A program made the translations under genes and the position numbers. A stretch of 64,000 nt of DNA, taken from Escherichia phage vB_EcoM_Goslar. Under the pieces are notes generated by a model, which had not been told where the DNA came from, ran no database searches, and saw only the letters and a program-made list of their open reading frames with translations. Location of the stretch: sequence record NC_048170.1, one strand, 5' to 3'. Of this stretch, positions 1 through 63,746 are shown in pieces (position 1 is the first letter of the stretch; each line of letters opens with the position of its first letter).

Positions 1-30
1 CCTTCCCTGATGGGTTGGAGGAGGGTTATG
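1..30 (+). terminator. partial conserved stem-loop (plus-sense copy, truncated by the window edge) with UUAUG
   Basis: ccttccc-tgat-ggg-ttggaggaggg then ttatg; 5' arm lies outside the window. Confidence 0.4.
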
Positions 31-39
31 CCGTCAAGC

Positions 40-56
40 AAAAAAAAAAAAAAAAA
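40..56. repeat. A17 homopolymer tract
   Basis: 17 consecutive A residues, 10 nt after the UUAUG that follows the partial hairpin. Confidence 0.9.
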
Positions 57-101
57 TGATAGTCACAGGCTCTCCAATGAAGGAGAGCCGTGACCGTCAG
101 T

Positions 102-803
102 TTAGGATGCGGATAATCTCGTGTACTTCTGGCGAATATGATTCTTACGGCGAACTTCGTCATCCTCGTCACGCCATTCGAGATAAGCAACGAATCGACG
201 TAACTGCGCTGCAGTCATCGCTGACGAGCGATCTTCTACATCTAGAACAACGTAACGAACGTCACCAACGCCATCGCAATCGACGTAACTGAATACCAAA
301 AGGCCATCGCCGTATTCAACGATGGTAACTTCGAATCGTTTATCGAACAAATAAAACAGTTCCGATTCAATGATCATCGGAATGACGCACATATCAGGAC
401 GATTGAGGATTTCCATCATCACCCGTAACGCGCGAGGAGTATGGCGAGCGAACTGGTCGTTAAAACGTTGTTTCATCGCTTGTTCCACACCATCTGTTTT
501 TGTTCCAAACCACGGACGTACTACAGATTTCGGTGGTGTAAGACGAAAGCGATATGCTTGTATAAACAACAGAATATCAGCGACGTTGGGAAATTCTTCC
601 TGGTCTTCGTATATCTTGCGGATAATATCCGGAATCGTAACCATCAAGTATTTCTTATCGCCTCCTACTTTCTCGAGATTAGCAATATGCCCTTCTACCA
701 CCGGCAGGTAAACGAAATTATACCAATGACGGTATCTTTCGGTACGTTGGTAGTTTGGGATAAAATTAAGAATACTACTCACTGCGCGTTTTAATGGGTT
801 CAT
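102..803 (-). CDS. hypothetical protein
   Basis: 233-aa ORF, ATG start at 801-803, no recognisable motif; follows the partial hairpin and A17 tract at the window start. Confidence 0.5.
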   Translation of the reverse strand: MNPLKRAVSSILNFIPNYQRTERYRHWYNFVYLPVVEGHIANLEKVGGDKKYLMVTIPDIIRKIYEDQEEFPNVADILLFIQAYRFRLTPPKSVVRPWFGTKTDGVEQAMKQRFNDQFARHTPRALRVMMEILNRPDMCVIPMIIESELFYLFDKRFEVTIVEYGDGLLVFSYVDCDGVGDVRYVVLDVEDRSSAMTAAQLRRFVAYLEWRDEDDEVRRKNHIRQKYTRLSAS

Positions 804-817
804 CGGAAGGATCCTTC

Positions 818-1231
818 TTATGTTTTAATATGCGCATCGTCAATCCCCTCGGTAATCCAGCCGATGGGAAGGACAATCGTTGTTATCCTGTTATGGGTGT
901 AGTGGTTGAGAAAATGGAAATAGTAATTTTTGTTAGACTGTTCGATCCGCAGGTCGAGATGCGCGTCTTCAGGTAACCGCAACCAAGCGCCGTACAGTTC
1001 ATTAAACTTACGCTGAATTTTACCGGGGTTCATTGGAACCCCACGACCGTGGTGGTGTAGCTGACGCAATGATTCAATCAAACACTCAGAGATACCCGTT
1101 GTCGTTCCGTTATCGCTTGTATCAATAACGATGAACTCTCGTGACCCACGACCGAGATAAAAACCGGCGACAAAAGCTGCAGCAACAAAAATTATCGTAC
1201 CGATACCAATATACCAATAGTAAGTATCCAT
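818..1231 (-). CDS. hypothetical membrane protein (single N-terminal TM helix)
   Basis: Track ORF 818..1252 starts at TTG; first ATG at 1229-1231 has SD GTGAGGT; hydrophobic stretch YWYIGIGTIIFVAAAFVAGFYLG. Confidence 0.45.
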   Translation of the reverse strand: MDTYYWYIGIGTIIFVAAAFVAGFYLGRGSREFIVIDTSDNGTTTGISECLIESLRQLHHHGRGVPMNPGKIQRKFNELYGAWLRLPEDAHLDLRIEQSNKNYYFHFLNHYTHNRITTIVLPIGWITEGIDDAHIKT

Positions 1232-1242
1232 AACGACCTCAC

Positions 1243-1770
1243 TTATACCCAATAGTCGGCAAGCGGTTTTACCTTATTAATGGGCAACTGTACTTTACCG
1301 ATGTTCTCTACATCCGCATCAGCGTAGAGAACAATTTTATCGTCGTCTCTTTCCCAACGAATAGTAAATCGGCCAGGAAGAAGATTACCCTGTTCAAGAG
1401 ACGCAGTAACCTGTTGTGTTAATACAGACAGCCAAGCAGGCATCAGTGTTGCAACATCTAAGTCATTTGACCACTCAGCGCGTTGCTCCACTGGGCGTAA
1501 CATACGTTCGACGGTGCGTTGAACTGTTGCGGTGATATAGCCTTTATCTTCGTCACTGATTGGATCAGGGCGAGACACAAAACGTTCAGCAGGCTTGTGG
1601 GTAATATATTCATGCAAATCGATGAGTGGTGTTGTCATAGTACTCGCTCCATCAGAATGTAATTGGGTAACCCGTAGGGTTGTCTGCATGCTATTCAGAA
1701 GCGCAAAAGCGCCATAAACAACAATGATGCTAAGTACGACCAAAACAGAAATCATTAATGTGTATTGCAT
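1243..1770 (-). CDS. hypothetical membrane protein (N-terminal TM helix)
   Basis: ORF 1243..1776; start moved to the second ATG (SD AGGAG 7 nt upstream); N-terminal hydrophobic segment LMISVLVVLSIIVVYGAFALL. Confidence 0.45.
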   Translation of the reverse strand: MQYTLMISVLVVLSIIVVYGAFALLNSMQTTLRVTQLHSDGASTMTTPLIDLHEYITHKPAERFVSRPDPISDEDKGYITATVQRTVERMLRPVEQRAEWSNDLDVATLMPAWLSVLTQQVTASLEQGNLLPGRFTIRWERDDDKIVLYADADVENIGKVQLPINKVKPLADYWV

Positions 1771-1871
1771 TGTCATCTCCTACTCACACGTATCTTGAAG
1801 ATTAGTTAAAATCAACAAAAGAAAAAACGATATAAAGCAAGGTCCTCTGATATCAGAGGACCTTGGATCAA

Positions 1872-2528
1872 TTAGCTTGCAGCTTCTTCATTTGTATCAG
1901 GTTTGCTTCCCCCTAACAAACCGTCAAACAGACCCGTATGTTTCAGGTAGAAGAGAGCGATAGCGCCCATCGCTGCTGCGCTCGTCGCCGTTAACGCAAC
2001 CCCAGCACGATACTGCCATTTACGGTCAGGCTTTTGATCAAGCGCCATACGACGCATGTATTCAGCCTCTGCCTCATTCCGATGAATTTCGGATTCGGCC
2101 AGACGGGCTAAGGTATCGCGGTCAAGGTTATCATAACGTACGTTCATGGTGGTTTCCTCTTGTTTGGAAGTTGATTGCTTAGTGGATTCTTGGTCAACAG
2201 TCGTTTCAGTTGGTTCAAACGGCTGGTTGTTCATTTTCTGATCTTTATTGGTCATGATAGACTCCTTCGATTTTTGAGATGAAATTGATTTAAACCATCG
2301 TGGATGGCGGTATTCGGTTTTACAGGTACAGTTAAGTTTCTCGTGCAGGAAAGCGTAAAAACGTTTTGCGCCTACACGTAAGGCTTTCAGCATTACCCAT
2401 CCACGAGCACTCAAACGGTGTAGCTGTTGCGGTATGTCTAGTTTCCTAGCCAAGCGAAAGTATCTTTCAATCACTTCGATAGGAAACCATTGTTGTTCCA
2501 CATCGGTGAGACTGAAAGTCTTATCCAT
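1872..2528 (-). CDS. hypothetical protein with C-terminal hydrophobic segment
   Basis: 218-aa ORF, ATG at 2526-2528; promoter-like motif D lies 25-50 nt upstream. Confidence 0.5.
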   Translation of the reverse strand: MDKTFSLTDVEQQWFPIEVIERYFRLARKLDIPQQLHRLSARGWVMLKALRVGAKRFYAFLHEKLNCTCKTEYRHPRWFKSISSQKSKESIMTNKDQKMNNQPFEPTETTVDQESTKQSTSKQEETTMNVRYDNLDRDTLARLAESEIHRNEAEAEYMRRMALDQKPDRKWQYRAGVALTATSAAAMGAIALFYLKHTGLFDGLLGGSKPDTNEEAAS

Positions 2529-2551
2529 GAATGAAATCTCGCTGGCTTACT

Positions 2552-2576
2552 TCACTTAAGTAATATAGCCGTGAAA
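2552..2576 (-). promoter_or_regulatory. conserved promoter-like motif, copy D
   Basis: Minus-sense TTTCACGGCTATATTACTTAAGTGA, 25-50 nt upstream of the 2528 start. Confidence 0.4.
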
Positions 2577-2678
2577 AATGTTGGATTAAGTTAAATACCG
2601 CAACCGCAGCTAATTTTATAGGCTTTTAGCCTAAACCAATCATCTTCGGAATCATCATCTTTGAAACAGGAATCTATC

Positions 2679-3500
2679 ATGGAAAAAGTATTTGTTTGTA
2701 AGTTGTTTACCAACGGCAATAGCCAACCAATGTATCTGACCGATCCAGTTCTGGGTAATCGGAACAGTACCGTATTCAAAGAAGCTTTCGAATACGCTAA
2801 AAATAAAGCCGTGAGAACGCTGACGTCTGATGACTGTATCAACGGTATCACGTGGGCAGAGTTATTCGGTGATGCTGTTAGACACTTCGTTCAGAACGCA
2901 AGAAAACAGGAAATCAGTCTCACGACTATCGTTGTGCGCGAAAACGCAGAAATTTTATCAAACGTTTTAGTTGATTTTAATGACGTTTGCGTGTTTAATC
3001 CAGAGAACACGTTTGAACAATATCTTACTGCCCTGAACAACCAGCTCGGTAAAGATATTCATCCCGAATTCGCCAAGTTAACATATCAGTTACTTTTTGA
3101 TGACATCGATCCAAATACGAAGATCAATACCAGCTCGTCACACCTGGTAAAGAAATACGGATCGGTTCTTGCTACGGCAACACCCACCACCGATGGCGGT
3201 TATGATATCGAATTGGATGGTCCATTAAAAGAACAAGAGCCTACTGGGGTTAGGGCGGTACATCACAACCTCGTCGTTAAATCTGATGGATGCGATGAAC
3301 ATTACGCTATGATAAACGATGAAAACAATTACCGTTTAAGTCAAGCGATTGGTGTTCTACGCTATACCGAACCCACTGTTGTAGACGATTATACATCGAC
3401 AACAACGCACACCACGTGTTTCATTTTCATTTATCCCAATGAAAGTGTGTACATTACTGACTGCTACGGCAACACTGTAGATAGCCTACGTCGTTACTAA
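2679..3500 (+). CDS. hypothetical protein
   Basis: Track ORF begins at TTG 2661; first ATG at 2679 has AGGA 9 nt upstream; followed by a hairpin plus T-tract terminator. Confidence 0.5.
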   Translation: MEKVFVCKLFTNGNSQPMYLTDPVLGNRNSTVFKEAFEYAKNKAVRTLTSDDCINGITWAELFGDAVRHFVQNARKQEISLTTIVVRENAEILSNVLVDFNDVCVFNPENTFEQYLTALNNQLGKDIHPEFAKLTYQLLFDDIDPNTKINTSSSHLVKKYGSVLATATPTTDGGYDIELDGPLKEQEPTGVRAVHHNLVVKSDGCDEHYAMINDENNYRLSQAIGVLRYTEPTVVDDYTSTTTHTTCFIFIYPNESVYITDCYGNTVDSLRRY

Positions 3501-3506
3501 TCGTCG

Positions 3507-3533
3507 AGCCTGTCCTTCGGGGCAGGCTTTTTA
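3507..3533 (+). terminator. rho-independent terminator (GC hairpin with TTCG loop, then TTTTT)
   Basis: agcctgtcc-ttcg-gggcaggct followed by tttttat immediately after the stop of the 2679..3500 gene. Confidence 0.6.
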
Positions 3534-3603
3534 TGCTGTTAAATATCCGGAATAAGAATTAACAAAATAGGAAAATGGTGTGAATATAACACAAAGGAGG
3601 GAG

Positions 3604-3726
3604 ATGATTATGTTACTCATTCTAATGGAGAGAGCATTGCTGGCGGGTATCTGCGCATTCTCTGTTAAACACGCTGTTGCTATCATGGCTGAAGAAAGGC
3701 GTAATACGCATAATGTATTACGCTGA
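3604..3726 (+). CDS. possible small hydrophobic peptide (40 aa), not in the ORF track
   Basis: ATG at 3604 preceded by AAGGAGG with 4-nt spacing; translation MIMLLILMERALLAGICAFSVKHAVAIMAEERRNTHNVLR; below the track's length cut-off. Confidence 0.3.
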   Translation: MIMLLILMERALLAGICAFSVKHAVAIMAEERRNTHNVLR

Positions 3727-3835
3727 AAACACTGTGTGCATTAGTGTATGACGAGAAATCGTCGAGGCCCCCGTCTTCACGAGGGCCAACACCTATGCAT
3801 GATTATCCATCGTCTGTTAAACAAAGGTTATAAAC

Positions 3836-4144
3836 ATGAGCAATTTGAACGTTGAGTTTACTTCAACAACGCCTGTCATGAATGGTGTTGGCACTGAAAC
3901 CAAAATCGTATTAGAACCCATTCCAGGGTTACGTGATCTCGGTGATTTTTATCAACTGATGCCGCGTATACGGAAGGCCTTAAACAGTATCGATCTTGAT
4001 TCTAATAAAGATTTCCAACACGATACAGAAAATACCGATCATGTGTTGCTGCCATCGGGGATCGCAAAATTCACCTACACGCAAACATTGAAAGCCTCCG
4101 ATGGTGAAATCCGTCGTTTTATCGTTGAAGTAGAAAGCGCATAA
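3836..4144 (+). CDS. hypothetical protein
   Basis: 102-aa ORF, ATG at 3836; ends at the conserved hairpin 4149-4180. Confidence 0.45.
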   Translation: MSNLNVEFTSTTPVMNGVGTETKIVLEPIPGLRDLGDFYQLMPRIRKALNSIDLDSNKDFQHDTENTDHVLLPSGIAKFTYTQTLKASDGEIRRFIVEVESA

Positions 4145-4148
4145 AAAC

Positions 4149-4180
4149 CATCCTCCCAACCCGTAAGGGAAGGGAGGATG
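4149..4180 (-). terminator. conserved intergenic stem-loop terminator
   Basis: catcctccc-aa-ccc-gtaa-ggg-aa-gggaggatg between convergent genes; minus-sense followed by UGGUUUUUAUGC. Confidence 0.55.
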
Positions 4181-4197
4181 AAATATGCCGTTAAACG

Positions 4198-4827: not shown

Positions 4828-4843
4828 TCCCCGCTCCAATTAA

Positions 4844-6019: not shown

Positions 6020-6053
6020 AACGTTTTTTCCTTCTTGGGTTTTGTACATGTTG

Positions 6054-7477: not shown

Positions 7478-7498
7478 CAACATAAATCCTTATTTATC

Positions 7499-10018: not shown

Positions 10019-10069
10019 ACTTCAGCGTTATTTTCTATATCGTTATTTAAATCAGTAGGAGATTACAGC

Positions 10070-11158: not shown

Positions 11159-11185
11159 ACAGAAGAAAAAAGAAATGCTATACAA

Positions 11186-11220
11186 CCTCCTTCCCTAGCC
11201 GTCAAGGCCGGGGAAGGAGG
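11186..11220. terminator. conserved intergenic stem-loop (variant loop), between convergent genes
   Basis: cctccttccc-tagccgtcaaggccg-gggaaggagg; 10-bp outer stem, U-rich flanks on both strands. Confidence 0.5.
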
Positions 11221-11235
11221 ATTATAGTTTATTTA

Positions 11236-11625: not shown

Positions 11626-11730
11626 TTTCTTTCCTCGATTACAATGAGTTCAATGTATAGCTTAAACGTCACAGAACGACGTATAACAGTTTGTTTTAAT
11701 TTCTAAGGGGTTTCCTTATCTAAGATTGAA

Positions 11731-12093: not shown

Positions 12094-12094
12094 A

Positions 12095-12520: not shown

Positions 12521-12535
12521 GTTCGATTCCTCGTA

Positions 12536-14971: not shown

Positions 14972-15052
14972 TTAAAAAGTTCCTCTGTTTCACGTTAATT
15001 AAACAACGTATTGATTTCTATTTGACAGAATACGAACAGTGTACGTATCTAT

Positions 15053-15076
15053 CATGAAGGTAATGTAGTCGTGAAA
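15053..15076 (-). promoter_or_regulatory. conserved promoter-like motif, copy A
   Basis: Minus-sense TTCACGACTACATTACCTTCATGA; one of four near-identical copies, about 80 nt upstream of the 14971 start. Confidence 0.45.
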
Positions 15077-15638
15077 GGATTTGTGTTACAGAAAGGGTTT
15101 TGTTTGTTTTAAGAAGGGATGGATTTAGAAGAGGTGTTTCAAGGAAGGTAAACGAGGATAGGTATTTTGATTTAAGTAAGCAAGTAAGATGTTATCTGTA
15201 TTTGTTAAAAGTGTATTGTCTATGTTATCTTGTTTATCTTAGGTTATGTCTTATTGTTCAATCGTTTTATCTTGGTATGTTTACGTTGTTTTTATTTATC
15301 TTAAATTAATTTAAAAGTAGATCAATAAGCTTATCTTCAAAACAATGGATAACATGTGTTTACTACCTTAACGGTAACACATGTCATCTGTGCATTACAC
15401 TACGTTACATGCTAGTTAAATCGGATAACTCAAAAAACCATTTGTGATACTCTTCTTCACGTTGTTCATCAGAGTATCTCGTCTATACTCATTGCATTCG
15501 TATACGACATAACCGTTATACGCTAACGCTACGCTTATAGCTTGATAACTCTAAGGATAAAAACATAAACTCGCTTCGCTCGTTTAGTTTTTCTTTTTCT
15601 TAGAGTTATCCTGTTGCTCGTCTCTAAAGGACTTCGCT

Positions 15639-15666
15639 CCTCCCCCGTCCCCCGAAGGGGCCGAGG
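15639..15666 (-). terminator. degenerate member of the stem-loop family (CCCC-CGAA-GGGG core)
   Basis: cctcccccgtcccccgaaggggccgagg inside the non-coding island. Confidence 0.3.
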
Positions 15667-15777
15667 TCGTGGAAATTTTACTTTCCAAATACATTTACAA
15701 CATCTGTAAACTTTTACTCCAGGTACTTAATCTTATCGTTAGAAATTATAAAAGAGAAGAATAAACACAAACATAAA

Positions 15778-15810
15778 CCTTCCTCCAACCCAACAGGGAA
15801 GGAGGAAGGG
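15778..15810 (-). terminator. conserved intergenic stem-loop terminator
   Basis: ccttcctcc-aa-ccc-aaca-ggg-aa-ggaggaagg directly after the stop of 15826..16719; minus-sense hairpin followed by UUUAUGUUUG. Confidence 0.6.
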
Positions 15811-15825
15811 AGAGCTTGATTTTAA

Positions 15826-16719
15826 TTAATCAGCAGTGTTATAACCGAATACTGCTTTACCGTAGGTGTGGGTACCGTTAGCTAATGACAGCACCAACAC
15901 ATGGTTGTACGTAGCGTTAACACCATTGTCGGTAGAACTGGTGGTAGCACCGTTATAGACAAAGGTAGCTGTTTGCAGATTGGCTTTCAGCTCGGTGATG
16001 ATCTCATCACTTACACCGGTCTGCTCTTTGATCAGCGTGGTCAGGTTACCTGCCAGGCTTTCATTGATCTTGGTTTCGTTATTGGTAATCCCCTGTAAAC
16101 CTGCAGTGTAGGTGCTGAAGTCTAACGGATAGGTTAACAGACGTGCTGACGTTTTGGTACCATCGCCTTCATCAACGTAGGTTAAGTTACCCAGGTTGGT
16201 AACCTTGATGATGTTAGCCAGATCCAGCGTAGTGTTATAAACTTTAACTTGAACAGAGCCATACCACGCCAACGAATCTTCTTTGGCTTCCAGGGTGATC
16301 GTCTGGATACCATGCTCGTTGAAGGTAACCGGATTAGATAACGTATCGGCTTTGATGTCTTTATCTTTATCCAGGAACTTCTCACCGGTCGGCGTGATCA
16401 TACCGTAGCGTTGAGCTACAAGGTCAACCACATCACCGATGGTGGTGTCAGCAGTAACGTTAACACGTACAGCGATTTTCTGGAACCACTTAGCCAGATC
16501 CAGACGATGGTAGGTAACATCGCGGTTATTGAAGTAAGGGGTACCTTCACCAGGGCTAAGCGTTAAAGTTGCGTCTGGAGCAGAATCACTTTTGGATTTA
16601 AGGACGTATTTAAGGTCGGTATATTTGAAGTTGGCACCAGTGTCAGTGTTGAGTTTGTTAATCTCATCAACGATAAGTTGCCAAGGTGTTTTTAAAGTAA
16701 GCGATACTTGAGTTGCCAT
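15826..16719 (-). CDS. virion-type protein, paralog family A (YxRxD and LAWxGSV motifs)
   Basis: Contains TYHRLDLAKWF and LAWYGSVQVKV shared with four other ORFs; optimal-codon-rich; SD GAGGT. Confidence 0.55.
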   Translation of the reverse strand: MATQVSLTLKTPWQLIVDEINKLNTDTGANFKYTDLKYVLKSKSDSAPDATLTLSPGEGTPYFNNRDVTYHRLDLAKWFQKIAVRVNVTADTTIGDVVDLVAQRYGMITPTGEKFLDKDKDIKADTLSNPVTFNEHGIQTITLEAKEDSLAWYGSVQVKVYNTTLDLANIIKVTNLGNLTYVDEGDGTKTSARLLTYPLDFSTYTAGLQGITNNETKINESLAGNLTTLIKEQTGVSDEIITELKANLQTATFVYNGATTSSTDNGVNATYNHVLVLSLANGTHTYGKAVFGYNTAD

Positions 16720-17603: not shown

Positions 17604-17637
17604 CCCCTCCTCAGCCCTTATCGGGTTGGGGAGGGGT
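17604..17637 (+). terminator. conserved stem-loop terminator (plus-sense copy)
   Basis: cccctcc-tcagccc-ttat-cgggttg-gggagggg followed by cttatacgtctttatg; downstream of the 16862..17404 gene. Confidence 0.55.
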
Positions 17638-17699
17638 CTTATACGTCTTTATGCGTTTCGTTCGTTCTGGAGCGTTTTAGGGCGGTTTACGACAGGGTT

Positions 17700-27735: not shown

Positions 27736-27745
27736 CCAAACATAA

Positions 27746-27777
27746 CCCTCCTCCAACCCGTAAGGGAAGGAGGAGGG
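27746..27777 (-). terminator. conserved intergenic stem-loop terminator
   Basis: ccctcctcc-aa-ccc-gtaa-ggg-aa-ggaggaggg; minus-sense hairpin followed by UUAUGUUUGG; sits between convergent genes. Confidence 0.6.
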
Positions 27778-27786
27778 AATATGCTG

Positions 27787-36814: not shown

Positions 36815-36845
36815 ACGGATATAAAAAAAAATAACACATAGTTAA

Positions 36846-36880
36846 CCTTCTCCCCAACCCGATGAGGGAAGGGGAGAAGG
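36846..36880 (-). terminator. conserved intergenic stem-loop terminator (variant loop GATGA)
   Basis: ccttctcccc-aa-ccc-gatga-ggg-aa-ggggagaagg between convergent genes; stem changes are compensatory. Confidence 0.55.
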
Positions 36881-36897
36881 GCTATGCGCTATTTAAT

Positions 36898-39827: not shown

Positions 39828-41624
39828 TCAATCGATTATGTCGCGATCGTTAATTTCTACAATTTCTTCATCGAATCGACCGACGTCTTTCTTCAAGCCT
39901 GCATTGGTTGCTGCAACGTCATTTGCAATTTGTGGGGTAATGATTAACCGACCGCGCTCATCGATAGGTGCGTACATACTGAACTTCTGACGTCCGGTTG
40001 GTTCGGAGTGTGGAAGATTCAGATAGCTTGCACAGAACGGGATGGAACCACTAACCAAACGACTCTCGTCAGCCAATGCAGCACCGCCTGCGTTTTGGCT
40101 CTGGAGAACAACATGCGTGCTCACTTTGAACAGCATGCAATCACCAGGTGACTGAATCGATGTTGCCACTTTCTCACGTTTATCACGATTGCTCTGGATA
40201 TTGAGAATCGCTTCCGTTGCAACTTGATTTCGCAACGCCTTCTGTACATCGCGATTGGTCATCTCTTTACGGTTGTTCTGTCGTTTACCACGTTCTGTGG
40301 TTTTAAGATGGAACCCCAGTTTAAAGATGCTCTTACGCACATCCTCCATGACATATTCCAACACCATCAATTCCTTACCGAACATCGTCGTGGTATCAAC
40401 ACGACTCATTTCGATAGTGACATTGTCAATCAGATACGCCATAAATTCGTAGAAGTCGTCGCAAGGAATATTTTCCTGTTTGAACTTCTTCTGTTGAATC
40501 TCGTCAACGTAAAGATCGAGACTGTCGATGTGGTGGTTTACATCACGCAACAAACGCGCATCCGCATTGTTGTTATTAAAGATAATCAAACCGAGTAATG
40601 TACGCCAATGGTCTGGCGCATTCGCGAACTCCTCAACCGGATAGTCTTCCGGAAAACGATCGTAATAACGGTCGATGAGATACAAGAATGCACCGACAAG
40701 GCCAAGAACAATACGTTCCGTGCCTCCACGTCTTACAGCAATTTGAATATCAGGATGTTTGTAACGTACAGCGCTAGCGCTACGGCTTTTACCGCTTTTG
40801 CTGATACTAAAGCCTTTAGGAATAACCCCCATGGTGCGATAGATTACCCATTGGTCACGCGGAAAATCACGTTCAGCAAGGTTCCGTCCGGTTACGGCTT
40901 CGACACCTGCAAAACGTCGGAAACACTCACCCACCCCGTACTTCGCAAAGAGATAGTGACCCAGTGTGGTTACGCTGGTGTGGTTGATGTTGTCACCGTT
41001 CACTTTACTTTGTTTAGTAAGATGATAGATTTGCGACCAGGGTAATGACAGGTAATGACGATAATCGATACCGGTCGGTGTATCATTGCTCAGGAACTGA
41101 TACGGTGTACGTTTAACCGTGATTTTGTCACGCGGAAGCATGATGAACGCCATGTCTTTCGTGTAACTGATTACGGGGTCAGCGAGTACCGCACTGAGAA
41201 TGAAGTTCGCACCACGTAGACGCATTTTACCACCCTGACCTACCGCGGGCAATAGGAGAGGATGTCGGATAATGCAGTAGTCCTTTCCTGGTTCACGACG
41301 GTCACCTGATTCCATCGCGCCGTACCAGCGGAATTCCAGCATCACCATAAACACATCGGAAGGCGCAAGGTCGAAGGTCAGCTTACCGCTATCCTTCCCT
41401 TTGGTTTTCTTTCCTCCGCTTAAGTAGTGGAACTGTTCGCGGGCCATACAACGACGCAGGCCATGATACACCAGATCCTTAGGTAAACTATCTTTGCTGT
41501 TCCGCCAAAGACGATCAACATAGGACTCAACATCTTGCATCTTATCGACGACGATGTTGCGTGCTATCTTCTCGTTCATCTTCGGTGCAAGCTCAGCGAC
41601 AGCTTTGCAGAATCTAGGATCCAT
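39828..41624 (-). CDS. hypothetical protein
   Basis: About 598-aa ORF; track start is GTG, adjacent ATG at 41622-41624 has SD AAAGGAG. Confidence 0.5.
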   Translation of the reverse strand: MDPRFCKAVAELAPKMNEKIARNIVVDKMQDVESYVDRLWRNSKDSLPKDLVYHGLRRCMAREQFHYLSGGKKTKGKDSGKLTFDLAPSDVFMVMLEFRWYGAMESGDRREPGKDYCIIRHPLLLPAVGQGGKMRLRGANFILSAVLADPVISYTKDMAFIMLPRDKITVKRTPYQFLSNDTPTGIDYRHYLSLPWSQIYHLTKQSKVNGDNINHTSVTTLGHYLFAKYGVGECFRRFAGVEAVTGRNLAERDFPRDQWVIYRTMGVIPKGFSISKSGKSRSASAVRYKHPDIQIAVRRGGTERIVLGLVGAFLYLIDRYYDRFPEDYPVEEFANAPDHWRTLLGLIIFNNNNADARLLRDVNHHIDSLDLYVDEIQQKKFKQENIPCDDFYEFMAYLIDNVTIEMSRVDTTTMFGKELMVLEYVMEDVRKSIFKLGFHLKTTERGKRQNNRKEMTNRDVQKALRNQVATEAILNIQSNRDKREKVATSIQSPGDCMLFKVSTHVVLQSQNAGGAALADESRLVSGSIPFCASYLNLPHSEPTGRQKFSMYAPIDERGRLIITPQIANDVAATNAGLKKDVGRFDEEIVEINDRDIID

Positions 41625-43274: not shown

Positions 43275-43309
43275 ATTTTTTCTATTCGCAACGATAAACG
43301 GCATAGAAA

Positions 43310-43339
43310 CCTCCCCCAACCCTTACGGGCTGAGGGAGG
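43310..43339 (-). terminator. conserved intergenic stem-loop terminator (variant)
   Basis: cctccc-ccaa-ccc-ttac-ggg-ctga-gggagg; minus-sense followed by UUUCUAUGCCG; downstream of the candidate capsid gene. Confidence 0.5.
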
Positions 43340-43438
43340 CTGACTTATGTATCACGGTGCCGGATGAATGTCCGGTGCAATGAAACCATCTGCAACGTTG
43401 TCATCAAGAATATCATCCAACGAAGCAGCTACGGTAGT

Positions 43439-45661: not shown

Positions 45662-45810
45662 TGAAAGTATCCTTTACAGAATTAACTTATATAAGTCGGT
45701 CGATAGACCATAGCGTACACGCGTGCATGCGCCACTATAGTATCAGTAAACACTTACCGTTATTGAGGTCGTGATACAACACTAAAAATGCCGCATAACT
45801 TTTCCCTACG

Positions 45811-48081: not shown

Positions 48082-48106
48082 ACGCAAAAAAAAAGATTGT
48101 GCGGTT

Positions 48107-48138
48107 CCCTCCTCCAACCCGTAAGGGAAGGAGGAGGG
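48107..48138 (-). terminator. conserved intergenic stem-loop terminator
   Basis: ccctcctcc-aa-ccc-gtaa-ggg-aa-ggaggaggg; on the minus strand followed within ~10 nt by a U9 tract; between convergent genes. Confidence 0.6.
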
Positions 48139-48154
48139 GTTATGACCGCTTTGA

Positions 48155-48481: not shown

Positions 48482-48487
48482 GATAAT

Positions 48488-49513: not shown

Positions 49514-49716
49514 CGTATTTTTACCTTTCTATGTTAGGTGGATTGCGGATAGAAGAATCAATGCATAGATTGATCGTTCTATGTTAGAAATTATTGCCGA
49601 ACTGGTTATGGTTATAACGCGTGTTTTCGTATTCTGACGGGTCGCGTATTAATAAGGTCATGACTGTATCCTCGATTATTAAGAGAAATTTACAACGATA
49701 ACAGTAACCGCTGTTA

Positions 49717-49740
49717 TCATCTAGGTAATGTAGTCGCGAA
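49717..49740 (-). promoter_or_regulatory. conserved promoter-like motif, copy B
   Basis: Minus-sense TTCGCGACTACATTACCTAGATGA, about 35 nt downstream (minus sense) of hairpin 49776-49807. Confidence 0.45.
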
Positions 49741-49775
49741 ATAAACTGGAGTAATGCGAAATAAGACAGCATAAG

Positions 49776-49807
49776 CCCTCTCCCAACCCGTAAGGGAAGG
49801 GAGAGGG
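49776..49807 (-). terminator. conserved intergenic stem-loop terminator
   Basis: ccctctccc-aa-ccc-gtaa-ggg-aa-gggagaggg; compensatory stem changes relative to other copies; followed by CUUAUGCUG. Confidence 0.6.
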
Positions 49808-49811
49808 AATA

Positions 49812-51179
49812 TTAAACGGTTGGACGAACGGTGTTGTCTTTTTCTGGTGCAAGCCATAACGTGACCGTACCATGGCATGTCCACTGTGGTTCACGTACAG
49901 AAGAACCTGCCATCGTAACAGCACAATCGGTACGCATGATAACCCCGTATGCTTCGCAGAGATTGTTATCCTGCATCCACACAACTTTAGCAGGCATGCC
50001 GGGATACAACAAATCCATGTTTGCGTATTCCCACACCAACTGCATTGTTCTACCGCGTAATCCAGCAGTATTGCTTAATTCACGCCATCGGTTATCGGTT
50101 ACGCGTCCCATCCCTTTCGCCACCTTCACGTTATCGCCACGTTCTTCAGTTACGTACTCGCTAACGTTTACAGTACGACTGATTATTGTATCGCCCCCTT
50201 TTGATAACGTCATTCCCTGGCTCATCTGACTTGCCGAAACAAAACGCCCACCCGCATTACCTAACAACGAAGCCGCGTTATTGATGTCGCTTACCGACGC
50301 CCCTCTCGTACATGCAATTTCCACGTATTTGTCACGATTGATCCAGGTCTTGTCCATGCCCGGAAACATATCGGCAGGATAGTTGTAAAAGATAGCCGTG
50401 CGCCGACCATCAGAAAAACGGGTTTCGTCATAGAGAGGATAAATATACAGATACGGAGATTGATAATAACAACCGACGTCCGCTGAATAAATACCGACCT
50501 GGTTCTGGATTTTGTCTACGAGATCCATTGCGTTGGTACCGTGCGGAAGAATAAGCAACTTGAACAGGTTGTCGTTATTCGGTGCAACAATATCCACACC
50601 CTGCATTTTGAATCCGGTGTCAGCTTCAACCGCAGAAAGTATCTTGCTGAATTCGAGCCGTAACACATCCAGCACTTTCGACCCGGTATAGTTCTCACCG
50701 GTTTCTGATTGCATGAAGCTTTCAAGAACAGGATCGAACAGTTGAAATTGAAGGTCGACCATTTGTTCGTAGTCTTTCTTCGAAGAATCGGTTGCGGTAC
50801 GTTCGTCGGTAGCAGACATACGACTGTCTACGGTTGTTAAACAAACCGCCCGGTAGACATAAGCCTGTGTGGCATCGTCTACGGTTTGGCGTTGTCCACG
50901 CATCAGGCTGTACGCCTGCACGATGATGCGCATTTTAAGTTGTTGTTGGTACGGTAGAATGTATTTTCCGTAACTGCCGGGCGGGAACTTTACAGAGATA
51001 TAAAGTTCATCTCCTGCGTTACGTTCATAGTCTCGATACGTGTGGACTTGAGTCACTAAAGGAACAGACACCGTCATTGACGGCGTGATTAATTCCGCGG
51101 TGACTTTATACGCAACAGCAACTGCTTCCTGCGCAAATGTACCGATATACCGTCCTAACGGCGTCTGTTTGTAATCCAT
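49812..51179 (-). CDS. hypothetical structural-type protein
   Basis: 455-aa ORF at the end of a long co-directional block. Confidence 0.5.
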   Translation of the reverse strand: MDYKQTPLGRYIGTFAQEAVAVAYKVTAELITPSMTVSVPLVTQVHTYRDYERNAGDELYISVKFPPGSYGKYILPYQQQLKMRIIVQAYSLMRGQRQTVDDATQAYVYRAVCLTTVDSRMSATDERTATDSSKKDYEQMVDLQFQLFDPVLESFMQSETGENYTGSKVLDVLRLEFSKILSAVEADTGFKMQGVDIVAPNNDNLFKLLILPHGTNAMDLVDKIQNQVGIYSADVGCYYQSPYLYIYPLYDETRFSDGRRTAIFYNYPADMFPGMDKTWINRDKYVEIACTRGASVSDINNAASLLGNAGGRFVSASQMSQGMTLSKGGDTIISRTVNVSEYVTEERGDNVKVAKGMGRVTDNRWRELSNTAGLRGRTMQLVWEYANMDLLYPGMPAKVVWMQDNNLCEAYGVIMRTDCAVTMAGSSVREPQWTCHGTVTLWLAPEKDNTVRPTV

Positions 51180-51181
51180 GT

Positions 51182-55028: not shown

Positions 55029-55079
55029 CGCAGATTCCTGTTTGAAAGATAAGATATCACATGATGGTCGACAGCATAA

Positions 55080-55101
55080 AGCCCACCCCGAAGGGCGGGC
55101 T
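55080..55101 (-). terminator. variant hairpin terminator with the same downstream UUAUG
   Basis: agccc-acccc-gaag-ggcgggct, minus-sense followed by UUUAUGCUG; directly after the stop of the 1125-aa gene. Confidence 0.5.
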
Positions 55102-55116
55102 GTTTATGCGTACGGA

Positions 55117-58494: not shown

Positions 58495-58509
58495 AAAGCG
58501 TTATTCCTC

Positions 58510-59616: not shown

Positions 59617-60901
59617 TGCTGGTTTCCTCAAGTTCGAGATGCGCGTCAAGATAATCATTAAGACCATCGATGACGTCGCAGACAGTTAACAGGAATCGGG
59701 CAAAAGCAACCGCCTGGAAGCCGACGACGTTACGCGCGATACCCACGCGTTGAACGATAGCGGATGCTGCGGTATCGTTATTGCCCATCTGTTGTAGCAA
59801 ACGTTCATACGGTTGAATCCATTCGTCCTGGTCGGCAAGGCTTGCTTCAAGACAACGTTTAAATTCCAACTGTCGTAGCGTAGACCATAACGTACTTAAT
59901 GCGTTGATGATCGCGTTGGTTCCGTCGATAACATCGTTTAACGGTAAGAAACGGAATCCGTCTTTTGCTGATTGGAAAGGTGCGGCTTCCCACACAACGC
60001 TGAACTGCGTTCCTGTTGCGTCTTCGATGTTGTGTAATTTAAGATAGGAAGCACCAACAGGAACGTCAACGACCAGATCGTCTGTTCCGGTAGGTGTTAA
60101 CGGCTTCTCGCATAACGCCTCGTTGATGGCCTCGAGAATATTCTCCCAACAGGCTTCGTTTTCCGCAGCGATACCTTCTTTGTTATCCGCTGATGGTGCT
60201 TTTAGTAGCTGCATTAATAACGGATCAAGTTGACGGTGCCATGCTGCGAGGATTCCTGTGTTCGTTACGATGTTTTCTGCGGTTTGTCGTAAATCAGCAA
60301 TACTGCTTACCGCACCGCCTTTCGGATGGAGATATCGCCAGTTGTAGGGAAAGTTCTCCCAGAATGCGTTATCTTCATCGACGTCGTATTCGGAAATAGT
60401 TTTCAACGCAGCCGCTTTCTTTAATAACGGCTTCACCTGACGAACGAATCGACGATAACAGCGATTGCAGATATCGATCGCATAGCGGTATAATTCGTTC
60501 ATGTAAAGCCATAATGCACGGGTTGCTTCTTTTGCTGTCTTGTCAAAACTTTCCATGTTCAGACTCATCCCGCTGGAAGTTTCCTCTTCCAGACCCTCGA
60601 TGATGTGGTTTGGATCCATCCCCATCCCGGCTGCTGCGGTCGATGCGATATGTTTGATGGTGTTGATATCGCGTTCCTCGACTTCAGCCATGTTTGGGAC
60701 AATATCCAGCCTGAGTTTATTTAATGTTTGAAGGTGTTGTTCACCTTCTTTCATCGCCGTGTTTGTTTCGTCGATTGAGTGAAACTGATTCTCAATATTA
60801 CTGGCATCGAGAATGTTGCCAGCGATACCGAACGATTCTACAGGTTCATCATCAATCCCTTGAAACAACGATGTCATGGGTTGTTGTAACACGTTTTCCA
60901 T
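59600..60901 (-). CDS. paralog family B protein
   Basis: Conserved IKHIASTAAAGMGMD and ALWLYMNELY blocks; SD TAGGAG. Confidence 0.5.
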   Translation of the reverse strand: MENVLQQPMTSLFQGIDDEPVESFGIAGNILDASNIENQFHSIDETNTAMKEGEQHLQTLNKLRLDIVPNMAEVEERDINTIKHIASTAAAGMGMDPNHIIEGLEEETSSGMSLNMESFDKTAKEATRALWLYMNELYRYAIDICNRCYRRFVRQVKPLLKKAAALKTISEYDVDEDNAFWENFPYNWRYLHPKGGAVSSIADLRQTAENIVTNTGILAAWHRQLDPLLMQLLKAPSADNKEGIAAENEACWENILEAINEALCEKPLTPTGTDDLVVDVPVGASYLKLHNIEDATGTQFSVVWEAAPFQSAKDGFRFLPLNDVIDGTNAIINALSTLWSTLRQLEFKRCLEASLADQDEWIQPYERLLQQMGNNDTAASAIVQRVGIARNVVGFQAVAFARFLLTVCDVIDGLNDYLDAHLELEETSNAADQ

Positions 60902-61008
60902 TTGGGACTCCTACGTAGGAAAATCTTGGCGGGTGATCATGTCCGCCATTTACCTTCTGAACCGTTGATTCAGAAGTCAAAAGATAACCGGATACCAACG
61001 CCATAAAA

Positions 61009-61041
61009 CCTTCCTCCAACCCGTAAGGGAAGGAGGAAGGG
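61009..61041 (-). terminator. conserved intergenic stem-loop terminator
   Basis: ccttcctcc-aa-ccc-gtaa-ggg-aa-ggaggaagg; minus-sense followed by UUUUAUGGCG. Confidence 0.6.
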
Positions 61042-61050
61042 ATATAGTGG

Positions 61051-62340
61051 TTATGCTTTTTCGGTTACAGCATCGAAGTATTTCGCTGCAGCAAATACGG
61101 CATCCGCATATTGACGGTTAGCAACACGGAGGATCTTAGCTGCTAATACCGCACTCAAGAGCGCCATTTCAGAAATGGCGCTTATATAAGGGCGAACGGT
61201 TTCACGATCTGCTTCCGGTAGATTGTCGAGCATACCGTCCCATTTGGTTTTAATTTTCATACCGTTCAGTTTAGCGGTACGTTCGACAGTACTCGTTAAA
61301 CTTTCCGTCTGGTTAAAATACGCAGGGTCAACAATACGAAACGCGTTAAGATACGAAGTCAGTGCGGCTTTCAATTCGTCGTCGTTATTGAAAATGTTCG
61401 CGTTTTCGATACTACCAGTCGCGGTTTCTTCCACTTCGATCTGAATATTCTTCACGAGCGCGCAGGCCTTAATGGTATCTTTCTCAGCCATAAGAGCGTC
61501 AAGACCTTTAACAACATATCGTTTCCCACCGCTTTCTGGTATTTTGAGTCCTTTTAACGCGGGCTTGATGGCGTAAATATAGTCGTCCAGAATATCGGCA
61601 AGTGTCGTCAAATCGGTTAGTTTATTAACTTTCTTGTTAATGTCGTCGGTTTGGAGTAGTAAAAAAGAGGATGCTTGTGTGGATGCCGCTAACTGCTCAA
61701 TATGTTTACGGACCTCCAACGCGTTAACTGTTTTTGCGTTAGGGAACATGCTAATCATATTCCCGGTCGGTTTATTTAGTTGTTTGATGTGACGCTCGCC
61801 TTTATTTACAGCGGTTGCAACATCGGTAATTTTTTTATACGCTACCGCAAGGTTTTTGAAAAGCAGCTGAATCAGTTTACATAACTGTTCAGCCATGTTC
61901 GCAATGATTACCCAAACTGCGTATAGCGCTTGTGCTGCGCGTTCTTTAAAGCCTTCCAGTACGATAGCCTGCCCTTCCACCAAACGATCGTCAGCTTGGA
62001 ACATGTCTTCATCAGACATCCCCAGGTTAGCTGCTGACGTCGAAGCAATCTGGCGGATAAGGGCGATGTCGCTCGCACGTGCTTCAGGGATCGTAGGTGC
62101 GATCATGTACGCGGTATCTTCCAGCGTTGCTGAGGTACGCACCGCAATTTCAGCCAGTTCGCTGGATTCGTCGATCGTCTCGTCGGTGCGTCGAATCACC
62201 AACTCAACTTCGTCCTCTTCAATTTCTGCGTTAGGATCGTTCTGCTCCGCTGGAATTGCCGCAAGAAGATCTTCGGCGCTGAGCAGTGCGAGTTCGAATG
62301 CGTTTTTATTGACGTTATCAAAAAGAGAAATGCGGGCCAT
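61051..62340 (-). CDS. paralog family B protein
   Basis: IRQIASTSAANLGM and LVEGQAIVLEGFKERAAQALYAVWVII blocks; acidic N-terminus; SD AAGGAA. Confidence 0.5.
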   Translation of the reverse strand: MARISLFDNVNKNAFELALLSAEDLLAAIPAEQNDPNAEIEEDEVELVIRRTDETIDESSELAEIAVRTSATLEDTAYMIAPTIPEARASDIALIRQIASTSAANLGMSDEDMFQADDRLVEGQAIVLEGFKERAAQALYAVWVIIANMAEQLCKLIQLLFKNLAVAYKKITDVATAVNKGERHIKQLNKPTGNMISMFPNAKTVNALEVRKHIEQLAASTQASSFLLLQTDDINKKVNKLTDLTTLADILDDYIYAIKPALKGLKIPESGGKRYVVKGLDALMAEKDTIKACALVKNIQIEVEETATGSIENANIFNNDDELKAALTSYLNAFRIVDPAYFNQTESLTSTVERTAKLNGMKIKTKWDGMLDNLPEADRETVRPYISAISEMALLSAVLAAKILRVANRQYADAVFAAAKYFDAVTEKA

Positions 62341-62349
62341 GTTAGTTCC

Positions 62350-63666
62350 TTAACCTTTGGTATAAGCGTTAACGAGAGTGTTGATAAATGAAGTCAGTGC
62401 GCGAAGATACTGGTAAGCGAATTGGTTTTCAATACGGTTCTCTTTACCGCAAAGCAGAATCGCACGCTTAACGAGTTTAGGATAGATCTCGACATACGGT
62501 TGGTAGCTTGCATCAAAATTCTGCTCGTTGAAGCGTTTCATGGTGATTTCCTGGATACGCTCCATGGTGCGAATTTTATTGCGAGAGAATATCTCAGAGA
62601 AAGCACGTCCGCGTTTTGTTACCATCAACAAATCTTTCGCGAACGTCAGTTGTCGAACGCTACGTAATTCGTCAGGTGTTGGCAGGACATACGTTTCTGG
62701 ATCGTTATCCCATTCAACATCTTCAACGATAATATCCAAGTCGAGGTAACGTTTAACAGCATCGATGATGTTGTCTTTTGACGCATCGAATTCTTTCAAG
62801 AAGACTGCGCCGTTGATGTAGCGGATGCGTTTCCCAGAAACTGTTGGGGTGATAACATCAGCACCTTCCACGGAACCGCGATTTTCCAGTGTCGATTTGA
62901 CAGCGTGCAAGAAAGACAGATAATCAACAGGAAGTTTTTCAACCTTATCTAAATGGAAGTCGATGATGTTTAATCCTAACCCATCAATAACTGAATAGCC
63001 GTCCGATTTAAGGAACATCTGATTGAAGGTATCGATGTTGCTTTTCAGCGTGTCTACGCCACCAACGCTGTTACGGTTAGGGAAAAGTGTCCGCCACTCC
63101 GCTTTAAACGCAACCTCTTTATTTTCCTCGTATTTGCCTTTAGGCATTTGTTCGAGGTCTGCAACGGCTTTCTGAAAATTGCGCGTCTCGTCGTAAACAA
63201 GACGGGTAAGCTTCTCGAAGGCTGCTGCCAAGGTCAGGGCAATATCAACAATGATATCCCAGATCTTTTTCATGGCTTTTACAACGGTGTCCTTAAACCC
63301 CTCAACAACCAAAGCTTCTCCAACCTCAACACGATCGGTTGGCGTCAGCAATGCTTCGGAGGGTAGACCCAGAGCAATCGACGCGGATTCTTGAACGTTA
63401 CGAACCAACGCAACATCACTGTAGTTAGCCGATTCGATAGTCGGAGCAACATCAAAACTGATTTCCCGTAATGCAGCAACAGCAGGGAAAGCACGATCAA
63501 GCGCATCTTCATGTTCGTCGATTGCCGCCAAACGTAATTCGACGCCATCGGCATCGATGACTTCAGCGGCAGGCTCCACAGCAAGCGCCTCAGCAACAAT
63601 AGGATCTTTTTCAAACGCCTCAAGGCTGATATCGCCTTGGGTCGCAAATAGCGGTATGTGTACCAT
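62350..63666 (-). CDS. paralog family B protein
   Basis: VRNVQESASIALGL and VEVGEALVVEGFKDTVVKAMKKIWDII blocks; track start is TTG, ATG at 63664-63666 has GGAG spacing 9. Confidence 0.5.
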   Translation of the reverse strand: MVHIPLFATQGDISLEAFEKDPIVAEALAVEPAAEVIDADGVELRLAAIDEHEDALDRAFPAVAALREISFDVAPTIESANYSDVALVRNVQESASIALGLPSEALLTPTDRVEVGEALVVEGFKDTVVKAMKKIWDIIVDIALTLAAAFEKLTRLVYDETRNFQKAVADLEQMPKGKYEENKEVAFKAEWRTLFPNRNSVGGVDTLKSNIDTFNQMFLKSDGYSVIDGLGLNIIDFHLDKVEKLPVDYLSFLHAVKSTLENRGSVEGADVITPTVSGKRIRYINGAVFLKEFDASKDNIIDAVKRYLDLDIIVEDVEWDNDPETYVLPTPDELRSVRQLTFAKDLLMVTKRGRAFSEIFSRNKIRTMERIQEITMKRFNEQNFDASYQPYVEIYPKLVKRAILLCGKENRIENQFAYQYLRALTSFINTLVNAYTKG

Positions 63667-63714
63667 GTGTTGTCTCCAGTAATGATTCAAAAGATAAACC
63701 TGAGCGGCATAGAA

Positions 63715-63746
63715 CCCTCTCCCAACCCGTGAGGGAAGGGAGAGGG
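63715..63746 (-). terminator. conserved intergenic stem-loop terminator (GTGA loop)
   Basis: ccctctccc-aa-ccc-gtga-ggg-aa-gggagaggg; minus-sense followed by UUCUAUGCCG. Confidence 0.6.

Follow-up and report, generated by a model that had tools for sequence, protein, structure and literature searches.

The 64-kb stretch of DNA analyzed here (64,000 nucleotides [nt] from the genome of Escherichia phage vB_EcoM_Goslar, NC_048170.1; hereafter the window) carries between its genes a recurrent family of two-tier hairpins that are accompanied by the tetranucleotide TATG. The window has a G+C content of 47%, and its gene map is dominated by minus-strand genes, broken by six plus-strand genes or blocks. 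Its large open reading frames (ORFs) encode a 740-amino-acid major head protein, several virion structural proteins, a DnaB-like helicase, an SbcC-like nuclease, and a “polymerase” of PHROG 2943. No Rfam family was detected in the window at gathering thresholds, and a tRNA scan of the window returned no tRNA. Neither a near-identity search of deposited phages with 12 kb of the window nor tblastn with its 1125-amino-acid ORF gave a match. The head protein matched only jumbo phages (of Pseudomonas, Erwinia, Xanthomonas, Ralstonia, Salmonella, and others), with identities of at most 34%. A 598-amino-acid “polymerase” encoded on the minus strand at 39828–41624 is a homologue of phiKZ gp123, a beta-like subunit of the phiKZ non-virion RNA polymerase (BLASTP against phiKZ gp123, E = 5e-57); it shares 7 of the 14 named pocket residues, as listed in PMC12809450, against 27% identity overall. 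The gene order helicase, small structural gene, capsid, gp122-like, gp123-like, gp124-like is that of phiKZ, LucasX, pEa_SNUABM_54, and RsoM3USA; the SA002 record stops just past the capsid gene, so that synteny there covers no gp123 position. Because of the head-protein matches, the gp123 homologue, and the helicase-capsid-gp123 synteny, the window can be assigned to a distant phiKZ-like (chimallivirus-type) jumbo phage. Judged by the gp123 homologue, this phage appears to encode RNA polymerase components of the phiKZ type, and the product of 39828–41624 is the presumed trans-acting reader of its TATG signals.

An earlier inspection of these letters (the original prediction) had proposed at least 14 copies of one genome-wide hairpin architecture, and the sequences it described are present where it placed them. 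To delimit the family, we combined a pattern search, a covariance model, and two related IMG/VR contigs (183 kb and 238 kb; contigs A and B), which are 84 to 98% identical to parts of the window. The pattern search for the two-tier architecture returned 11 loci, compared to approximately 1 per shuffled window with both strands counted. The covariance model was trained on the hairpins of the eight copies with 4-nt loops and was restricted to the hairpin, so that the flanks remained an independent test. Run on the 64 kb with filters off, it recovered its 8 training copies, the held-out copies with 5-nt loops at 36846 (E = 5e-7), 17604 (E = 3e-4), and 11186 (E = 2e-3), and an edge-cut copy at 1–18 (E = 0.0076). 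No other match at E < 1 was detected in the 64 kb, coding sequence included. Both searches confirmed the proposed architecture of outer stem, 2x2 internal loop, CCC/GGG stem, and small loop, and the covariance-model scan of the window upheld the family. Its membership shrinks, though, from at least 14 to 12 (11 full copies and the edge-cut one). The GC-rich hairpin at 15639–15666, formerly counted as a degenerate copy, gave no covariance-model match even at E ≤ 10 and lacks a TATG tail, and the supposed variant at 55080–55101 scored E = 7.7 and is a single-tier hairpin. The description of the family as genome-wide is borne out by the related contigs, across which an 18-nt core is matched exactly 9 and 6 times, spread along each. 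Three pairs of copies have the same stem sequence, and the inner core CCAACCCGTAAGGGAAGG is nearly invariant among copies. The existence of the hairpin family in the window is statistically overwhelming.

As originally described, every copy lies between genes, although intergenic DNA makes up only 7.9% of the window; the covariance model, run as above on the 64 kb, placed zero copies in coding sequence. All six plus-to-minus convergent junctions of the window are occupied. The first is marked by the hairpin at 4149–4180 (53.4 bits), with CATA at 4140–4143, TATG at 4184–4187, and the tail ATATGCCGTT; its folding energies are −26.5 and −29 kcal/mol for the two senses. The divergent copy at 11186–11220 (whole element, 11177–11227; held-out E = 0.0024) combines a 5-nt loop with a GCC/GGC inner stem, and TATAG takes the place of TATG on both of its flanks (GCTATAcaa ... 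atTATAG); in its folds (−32.3 and −30.3 kcal/mol), CUAUA and UAUAG are paired as a lower stem. A second divergent copy, at 17604–17636 (held-out E = 3e-4), has its TATG at 17650–17653 within the plus tail CTTATACGTCTTTATG. The highest covariance score (60.2 bits) belongs to the hairpin at 27746–27777, which is framed by CATA at 27741–27744 and TATG at 27780–27783 (tail ATATGCTGTT). The copy at 36846–36880 (held-out E = 5e-7), with an outer stem of 10 bp and the loop GATGA, stands between CATAG at 36837–36841 and a CTATG that ends at 36886. The last, at 48107–48138 (whole element, 48086–48144), follows the DnaB-like helicase gene; its plus tail is GTTATGACCG, with TATG at 48141–48144, and its minus side carries a T9 run (A9 at 48086–48094 on the plus strand).

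The other six copies lie 4 to 99 nt past minus-strand stop codons. The edge-cut copy at 1–30, 3′ of the minus-strand gene 102–803, comprises the 3′ half of the hairpin (1–25) and a plus-side TTATG (26–30), and it is complete in a relative (L004 5373–5409). After the minus-strand gene 15826–16719, the element at 15772–15809 consists of the hairpin 15778–15809 (loop AACA) and a sense (minus) tail TTTATG (CATA at 15772–15775 on the plus strand), with no TATG on the plus side. The tandem minus-strand copy at 43302–43349 (hairpin 43310–43339) stands 99 nt past the stop of the capsid gene, at a position orthologous to the post-capsid terminators of five other jumbo phages; its sense tail is TTTCTATGCCGTT (CATA at 43302–43305 on the plus strand), and an antisense TATG lies at 43346–43349. 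Only 4 nt separate the stop of the minus-strand gene 49812–51179 from the element at 49770–49807 (hairpin 49776–49807), which has the sense tail CTTATGCTGTC (CATA at 49770–49773 on the plus strand) and no TATG on the plus side. The element at 61002–61055 (hairpin 61009–61040) follows the minus-strand gene 61051–62340 with the sense tail TTTTATGGCG (CATA at 61002–61005 on the plus strand) and an extra TATG at 61052–61055. Finally, the element at 63708–63752 (hairpin 63715–63746, loop GTGA) follows the minus-strand gene 63769–63999; its sense tail is TTCTATGCCGCT (CATA at 63708–63711 on the plus strand), and its plus-side TATG lies at 63749–63752. The copies are found at the ends of transcription units, bidirectional convergent sites included.

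All 12 copies are GC-rich stem-loops whose 5′ arm is rich in pyrimidines and whose 3′ arm is rich in purines. Pairing was examined over 15 distinct copies from the window and its relatives: 97.8% of cells are paired, whereas shuffles give 81.4% (none of 500 is as high as the real set) and slid controls 51 to 69%. Both-sided changes occur at 9 of the 12 pairs, nearly always from C-G to U-A, and the arms remain pyrimidine and purine. The compensatory changes that had been noticed in the outer stems are therefore real; as an argument for selection at the RNA level they are insufficient alone, because DNA-level template switching occurs at these palindromes, as centre inversions described below reveal. 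Folded as RNA in either sense, each copy falls between −26 and −33 kcal/mol (z-scores, −4.5 to −7.4). That the 2x2 mismatch persists through flips of the centre and is kept in at least 9 copies suggests that it is wanted. In most minimum-energy folds, the upstream CAUA pairs with the downstream UAUG as a third tier, and at 11186 the flanks have changed together to CUAUA and UAUAG. We rejected a reading of CATA and TATG as purely a third-tier stem: the tetranucleotide does not covary but is invariant, and the two sides lack complementarity in their YYGT extensions.

The flanks, which the covariance model had not seen, were then analyzed. A fixed downstream YTATG had been claimed; a TATG near the stem is confirmed, but it is not restricted to the downstream side, since outward TATG (read as CATA upstream) occurs on both sides. 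Of 27 flanks, 19 have a TATG that starts within 13 nt of the stem (10 of 14 on the plus side and 9 of 13 on the minus side), compared to backgrounds of 2.4% and 3.6%; of the 20 sense-side flanks, 15 have one no farther than 12 nt away. TATG is also the top enriched 4-mer beside the window hairpins (18/32 flanks against 0.67 expected, 27-fold). Alignment of 19 tails on TATG gave [T/C/A]-TATG-C-Y-G-T-T (consensus YTATGCYGTT). The uninterrupted U-run that directly follows the hairpin of a canonical bacterial terminator is absent, and the tails read UUAUG, CUAUG, or AAUAUG; the single U9 exception in the original prediction is the minus side of 48107, where the run starts 12 nt from the stem. The same tail stands behind hairpins outside the family, at 3508–3528 (ttttTATGCTGTT), at 55080 (tTTATGCTGTC), and at 3766–3788. 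The ATG of the tail was also considered as a start codon, with the purine arm as a Shine-Dalgarno-like element 5 to 9 nt before it. This candidate was rejected: the ATG opens merely ORFs of 4 to 62 codons, of random length, and the conserved positions past it show no codon pattern.

To examine direction, hairpins from the window, phiKZ, and LucasX were pooled, with gene context taken from a crude ORF call. At convergent junctions, the sense side has TATG after the stem in 30 of 40 cases; in tandem contexts, the sense side has it in 23 of 38 cases and the antisense side in 16 of 38. For these three classes, in the same order, the score of the YYGT extension (maximum, 4; random, 1.5) is 3.0, 3.1, and 2.3, and in the pooled set the spacing from stem to TATG is 1 to 6 nt, with a mode of 2. 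The tail signal is best where a polymerase arrives and is tightly coupled to the stem, yet it is strongly enriched on the “unused” side too. In all orthologue comparisons, the sense-side TATG is constant. The antisense-side TATG varies: the plus side of 61009 is TATA in the window and TATG in both relatives, and that of 63715 is TACG in contig B.

The claim that hairpin orientation tracks transcription (12 copies sense for the minus strand and 2 for the plus strand) did not hold. The stem runs from pyrimidine to purine on both strands, six copies are at convergent junctions, and the centres are inverted between relatives. The two strands differ only in the centre, which presents AA/AA and a GNRA-like loop on one and TT/TT and a TNAC loop on the other; where minus-strand genes stand in tandem, it is mostly the UU/UUAC face that is transcribed as sense, with the AA/GNRA face mostly antisense. 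The central 14 nt are the exact reverse complement at 4149 and 48107 in comparison with contig A and at 63715 in comparison with contig B. In these cases the stems are unchanged, the flanks are identical or nearly so, and the genomes are 96 to 98% identical (L004, L013, L015). Because the centres are inverted between near-identical genomes, we conclude that both hairpin faces (AA/GNRA and UU/UNAC) are tolerated and interchangeable and that, at the DNA level, the arms frequently undergo template switching or recombination. Comparable small inversions of loops between inverted repeats are known from chloroplast noncoding DNA and from quasi-palindrome template switching. The window resembles these known cases in that the centre is swapped for its exact reverse complement with the stems and flanks the same; it differs in that the inversions lie in phage terminators and that the 2x2 mismatch flips together with the loop. 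In the unrelated hairpin at 68–89, a 6-nt loop (AATGAA/TTCATT) is flipped in the same manner.

Other differences from the relatives were observed at single sites. The orthologue of 17604–17637 in contig B (L007 586–622) has a perfect 14-bp stem in which AG is paired with CT, whereas the window copy has an AG/TT internal loop and one mismatch; one arm of the window copy looks partly converted toward the family consensus. In contig A (L013 12823–13554), an extra minus-strand ORF of 243 amino acids stands between the hairpin and the orthologue of 49812–51179, where the gap in the window is 4 nt. This is a gene-sized indel abutting the terminator. A paralogue in contig A (L005 3381–3483) shares approximately 100 nt with window positions 49714–49816, at 87.5% identity. 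Because this similarity includes both flanks of the 49776 copy, at least some copies spread or homogenize along with their flanks.

The terminators of phiKZ and its relatives provide the closest parallel. In phiKZ, ONT-cappable-seq defined 61 predicted intrinsic terminators at mapped 3′ ends that share the motif BCCYCCCCHWWDGGGRRGGBYTTATKYYGT (PMC10914365), with 6 bidirectional terminator regions between convergent genes (PMC10914365; Putzeys et al. 2024). The window family shares with them a GC-rich stem-loop (5′ arm, pyrimidine; 3′ arm, purine), a TTATG-YY-GT tail right behind the stem, and sites past stop codons and between convergent genes; actual phiKZ sites also have the upstream CATA, which is absent from the published motif. 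The two sets differ in the stem and in the tail core. The phiKZ terminator has a single stem of 7 to 8 bp, whereas 11 of the 12 window copies are two-tier, with a 2x2 AA/AA internal loop that separates an outer stem of 9 to 10 bp from CCC/GGG and its tetraloop, and none of the 11 full copies fits the single-tier CCYCCCC-HWWD-GGGRRGG. The invariant tail core of the window is TATG (18/32 flanks) rather than TTAT. In phage 201phi2-1, motif A (n = 59) resembles the phiKZ terminator motif, joined A/B motifs form elongated hairpins, 15 sites are bidirectional, and 8 terminators were validated in vivo in a two-reporter terminator trap (PMC11512511). By description, the phiKZ-resembling hairpin and the bidirectional sites of 201phi2-1 are like those of the window, and its elongated combined form may be comparable to the two-tier design. 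Bacterial bidirectional intrinsic terminators (A-tract, hairpin, U-tract) have a similarly symmetric design, in which the upstream element may pair with the tail and lengthen the stem; they differ in that the window tail is the specific TATGCYGT and not a U-run, apart from the U9 on one side of 48107.

We next located phiKZ sites by fuzzy matching to the published consensus. The site after the phiKZ capsid gene shows the same CATA-hairpin-TATG symmetry (aCATAgGCCCTCCCTTCGGGGAGGGCTTTATGTTGT), and a bidirectional site reads CATAatGCCC...GGGCTTATGACGT. Across 150 kb of phiKZ, TATG lies within 9 nt of 26 of 46 strong hairpins, 15 of them with TATG on both sides, and in 42 kb of Xanthomonas phage LucasX it lies beside 14 of 23 hairpins. 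Examples of CATA-hairpin-TATGCYG were also found in Ralstonia, Salmonella, and Erwinia jumbo phages. At the post-capsid position of six divergent phages, unrelated hairpins are each followed by a short spacer, mostly T-rich (2 to 10 nt), and then by TATGC[C/T] (TATGTT in phiKZ), with an upstream CATA in 4 of the 6. Because unrelated post-capsid hairpins share this tail, the hairpin sequence drifts between lineages while the tail is held.

Two further observations concern hairpins with other tails. Some phiKZ hairpins (L001 3735, 7334, 8928, and 32922) have G-less tails (TTTTATTTTC, TTTTTATTTTGT), which seem to cluster in regions of nonstructural genes, with TTATG at the terminators of structural genes; the two tail types could reflect the two phage polymerases. 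In a contig unrelated by BLAST (L012 1956–1991; IMGVR_UViG_3300020577_003345), the inner core CCCCC-AA-CCC-GTAA-GGG-AA-GGGGG stands between convergent genes with a canonical T-rich tail (CTTTTCTTTATTCT), not TATG.

Taken together, the phiKZ-like genes, the match to the mapped phiKZ motif, and the placement make an intrinsic-terminator family in a phiKZ-like phage, as had been proposed, the best-supported reading. Specifically, the family very probably represents factor-independent terminators of the phiKZ type, often bidirectional, in a two-tier lineage variant used by the multisubunit RNA polymerases of the phage. From the comparison with other phages, we infer that transcripts end at the hairpins and how the tail acts. 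Behind the polymerase, the nascent RNA would fold into a very stable pyrimidine/purine hairpin, which in this lineage has two tiers: a 2x2 AA or UU internal loop separates the 9-bp outer stem from a CCC/GGG inner stem capped by a tetraloop. The tail Y-TATG-C-Y-G-T, 1 to 6 nt past the stem, would replace the plain U-run, and the weak UUAU-containing hybrid together with the tail sequence would slow the polymerase. Upstream CAUA may zip onto UAUG, an analogue of A-tract/U-tract pairing that would help strip the transcript off the template. With a palindromic stem and outward tails on both sides, one DNA element could stop polymerases arriving from either direction, which would explain why every convergent junction is occupied. 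Two compatible ideas may account for the specificity of the tail. The TATG pocket of the polymerase might grip the nontemplate strand during elongation and create a pause, or the G-rich 3′ arm and the YG of CYGT might mimic a pause consensus. For multisubunit polymerases in general, that consensus is G-10 Y-1 G+1.

Several points weigh against this interpretation. The assignment as terminators rests wholly on comparison with phiKZ and 201phi2-1, and long-read mapping of 3′ ends alone does not tell termination from 3′ trimming to a protective hairpin. A one-way terminator would not need the TATG that tandem contexts show on the antisense side (4/8 in the window and 16/38 across genomes). A simple need for stability does not explain the 2x2 internal loop and the near-invariant core CCAACCCGTAAGGGAAGG. 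Part of the compensatory pattern could have arisen by mutation instead of through RNA selection, because the inverted centres reveal template switching or recombination between the arms at the DNA level. Finally, the tail core is identical to the promoter core of the phiKZ non-virion RNA polymerase (nvRNAP), which leaves room for a role as a promoter.

This last point underlies the first alternative, in which terminator and promoter are fused: the TATG of the tail would be a working nvRNAP late promoter, with its G as +1, that restarts transcription for the next gene while the hairpin insulates. The mention of TATG-containing phiKZ promoters in the original prediction was correct: TATG with G at +1 is the necessary, though not sufficient, core of the phiKZ late promoters (PMC4666361), and a pocket in the gp123 beta-lobe of phiKZ binds nontemplate T-3 A-2 T-1 G+1 (PMC12809450). 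The window thus shares with these promoters the same tetranucleotide, and it encodes a homologue of the reading subunit that keeps 7 of 14 pocket residues; all six tandem minus-strand sites have a sense-side TATG that faces the next gene, in a late or structural region. At convergent junctions, however, the tails face gene 3′ ends and would fire antisense, yet they are at least as frequent and as well formed there (30/40) as elsewhere. Coupling to the stem at 1 to 6 nt is what a terminator tail needs, not a promoter. Known phiKZ late promoters differ in having neither a conserved upstream element nor a hairpin, P119L among them, whereas the window tails are coupled to hairpins and half of them face gene 3′ ends; a hairpin before most late starts would have surfaced in motif searches over −50 to +1. 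G-less tails of the TTTTATTTT type in phiKZ also speak against a promoter. The window's phage probably uses TATG promoters too, judging from hairpin-free TATGs that precede the start of the capsid gene by approximately 50 to 60 nt in the window and in Erwinia phage pEa_SNUABM_54, and that of gp119 in phiKZ (P119L). In the minus sense of 45662–45810, upstream of the capsid gene, the two hairpin-free TATGs (agtTATGCGGC and cgcTATGGTCT, the second approximately 52 nt before the start codon) are candidate late promoters, and divergent intergenic regions of the window showed no consistent pattern of hairpin-free TATG promoters. The tails point toward the downstream gene at the 6 tandem minus-strand sites and toward gene 3′ ends on both sides of the convergent copies. 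Their regularity, which is greatest at convergent junctions, their fixed spacing to the stem, the makeup of known late promoters, and the G-less tails argue that hairpin-adjacent TATGs are primarily terminator tails. We consider the fusion unlikely as a general account, and the tandem sites leave scope for a secondary restart function.

A related proposal retains termination and treats tail and promoter as one signal, read by the same gp123 pocket, so that the pause element would be TATG and not a U-tract. Once it had transcribed the hairpin, an elongating nvRNAP would meet TATG in its bubble and be held there, with the RNA 3′ end at UAU, 4 to 9 nt past the stem, which is the geometry needed for intrinsic termination; after release, the polymerase could restart at the same G. 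If true, this model would explain why a specific tail is conserved across the Chimalliviridae when the hairpins are not, why the spacing is 1 to 6 nt, and why TATG is necessary but not sufficient as a promoter. We regard it as speculative and unlikely.

In a second alternative, polymerases read through, and the hairpin protects an mRNA 3′ end made by cutting in the A/U-rich TATG region or by 3′-to-5′ trimming. The hairpins are very stable in both senses, and they have the layout of RNase E-type sites, in which a stem-loop is followed by an A/U-rich single strand. Mapped phiKZ 3′ ends fit termination and processing alike, a limit of the method used (PMC10914365). Eight 201phi2-1 terminators, in contrast, terminated in vivo in the two-reporter trap (PMC11512511), and a tail of 8 to 9 nt common to Pseudomonas, Xanthomonas, Ralstonia, Salmonella, and Erwinia phages fits coevolution with a phage polymerase better than with host nucleases. 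Processing as the primary role is quite improbable. Least likely is a repeated palindrome at the DNA level (a repetitive extragenic palindrome, an element like a miniature inverted-repeat transposable element, or a protein-binding site) that spreads by duplication and reached gene ends only secondarily: the three copy pairs with identical stems, the paralogue of 49776 that includes its flanks, the hairpin dynamics seen as centre inversions, and the gene-sized indel beside one copy in a relative would suit it, but a mobile element is unlikely because every orthologous site compared is occupied, with no presence/absence polymorphism, no copy lies in coding sequence while 6 of 6 convergent junctions are filled, and the tail is conserved beside unrelated hairpins of distant phages. 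A scan of 20 large ORFs revealed no transposase family.

Additional features of the window bear on hairpins outside the family. The single-tier hairpin at 55080–55101 (whole element, 55075–55108) reads AGCCCGCCC-UUCG-GGGUGGGCU in the minus sense, with the sense tail TTTATGCTGTC and CATA/TATG on both sides, and folds at −25.3 kcal/mol. It has 3 mismatches to the published 30-nt phiKZ consensus and is the sole window site with 4 or fewer; by sequence it appears to be the classical form of the phiKZ-type terminator. A second single-tier hairpin lies on the plus strand at 3508–3540, after the plus-strand gene 2679–3500 (GCCTGTCC-TTCG-GGGCAGGC, then TTTTTATGCTGTT), and the hairpin (3508–3528) and its tail are kept in both relatives. 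In the minus sense, the hairpin at 68–89 is directly followed by T17 (an A17 run at 39–55 on the plus strand, one base shorter in contig A), which would make it a canonical U-run terminator of gene 102–803, approximately 40 nt before the copy at 1–25. The 854 nt at 14972–15825 are without a credible ORF and hold the family copy at 15778, the GC hairpin at 15639–15666, and an AT-rich part. On the plus strand at approximately 15220–15280, three hairpin-free TATGs stand 26 and 31 nt apart (TATGTTATCTTG, TATGTCTTATTG, TATGTTTACGTTG) and point against the adjoining minus-strand genes. Candidate roles for these 854 nt are a promoter cluster, a noncoding RNA locus, and an origin-like region.

This kind of terminator is already published for phiKZ and 201phi2-1; new here is the two-tier hairpin variant. 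The present analysis adds that the TATG-containing tail is what stays invariant throughout the phage family, that the module is symmetric, and that its centre flips freely. Read as phiKZ-type terminators, the hairpins provide a ready-made operon map for a jumbo phage, and a hairpin followed by TATGCYGT offers a portable rule for annotating terminators in phiKZ-like phages, whose middle and late signals are reputedly hard to predict. The centre inversions are a clean natural experiment on the AA/GNRA and UU/UNAC faces. A free hairpin with a fixed tail that contains the promoter core makes termination by sigma-embedded polymerases, and the definition of their promoters, directly testable.

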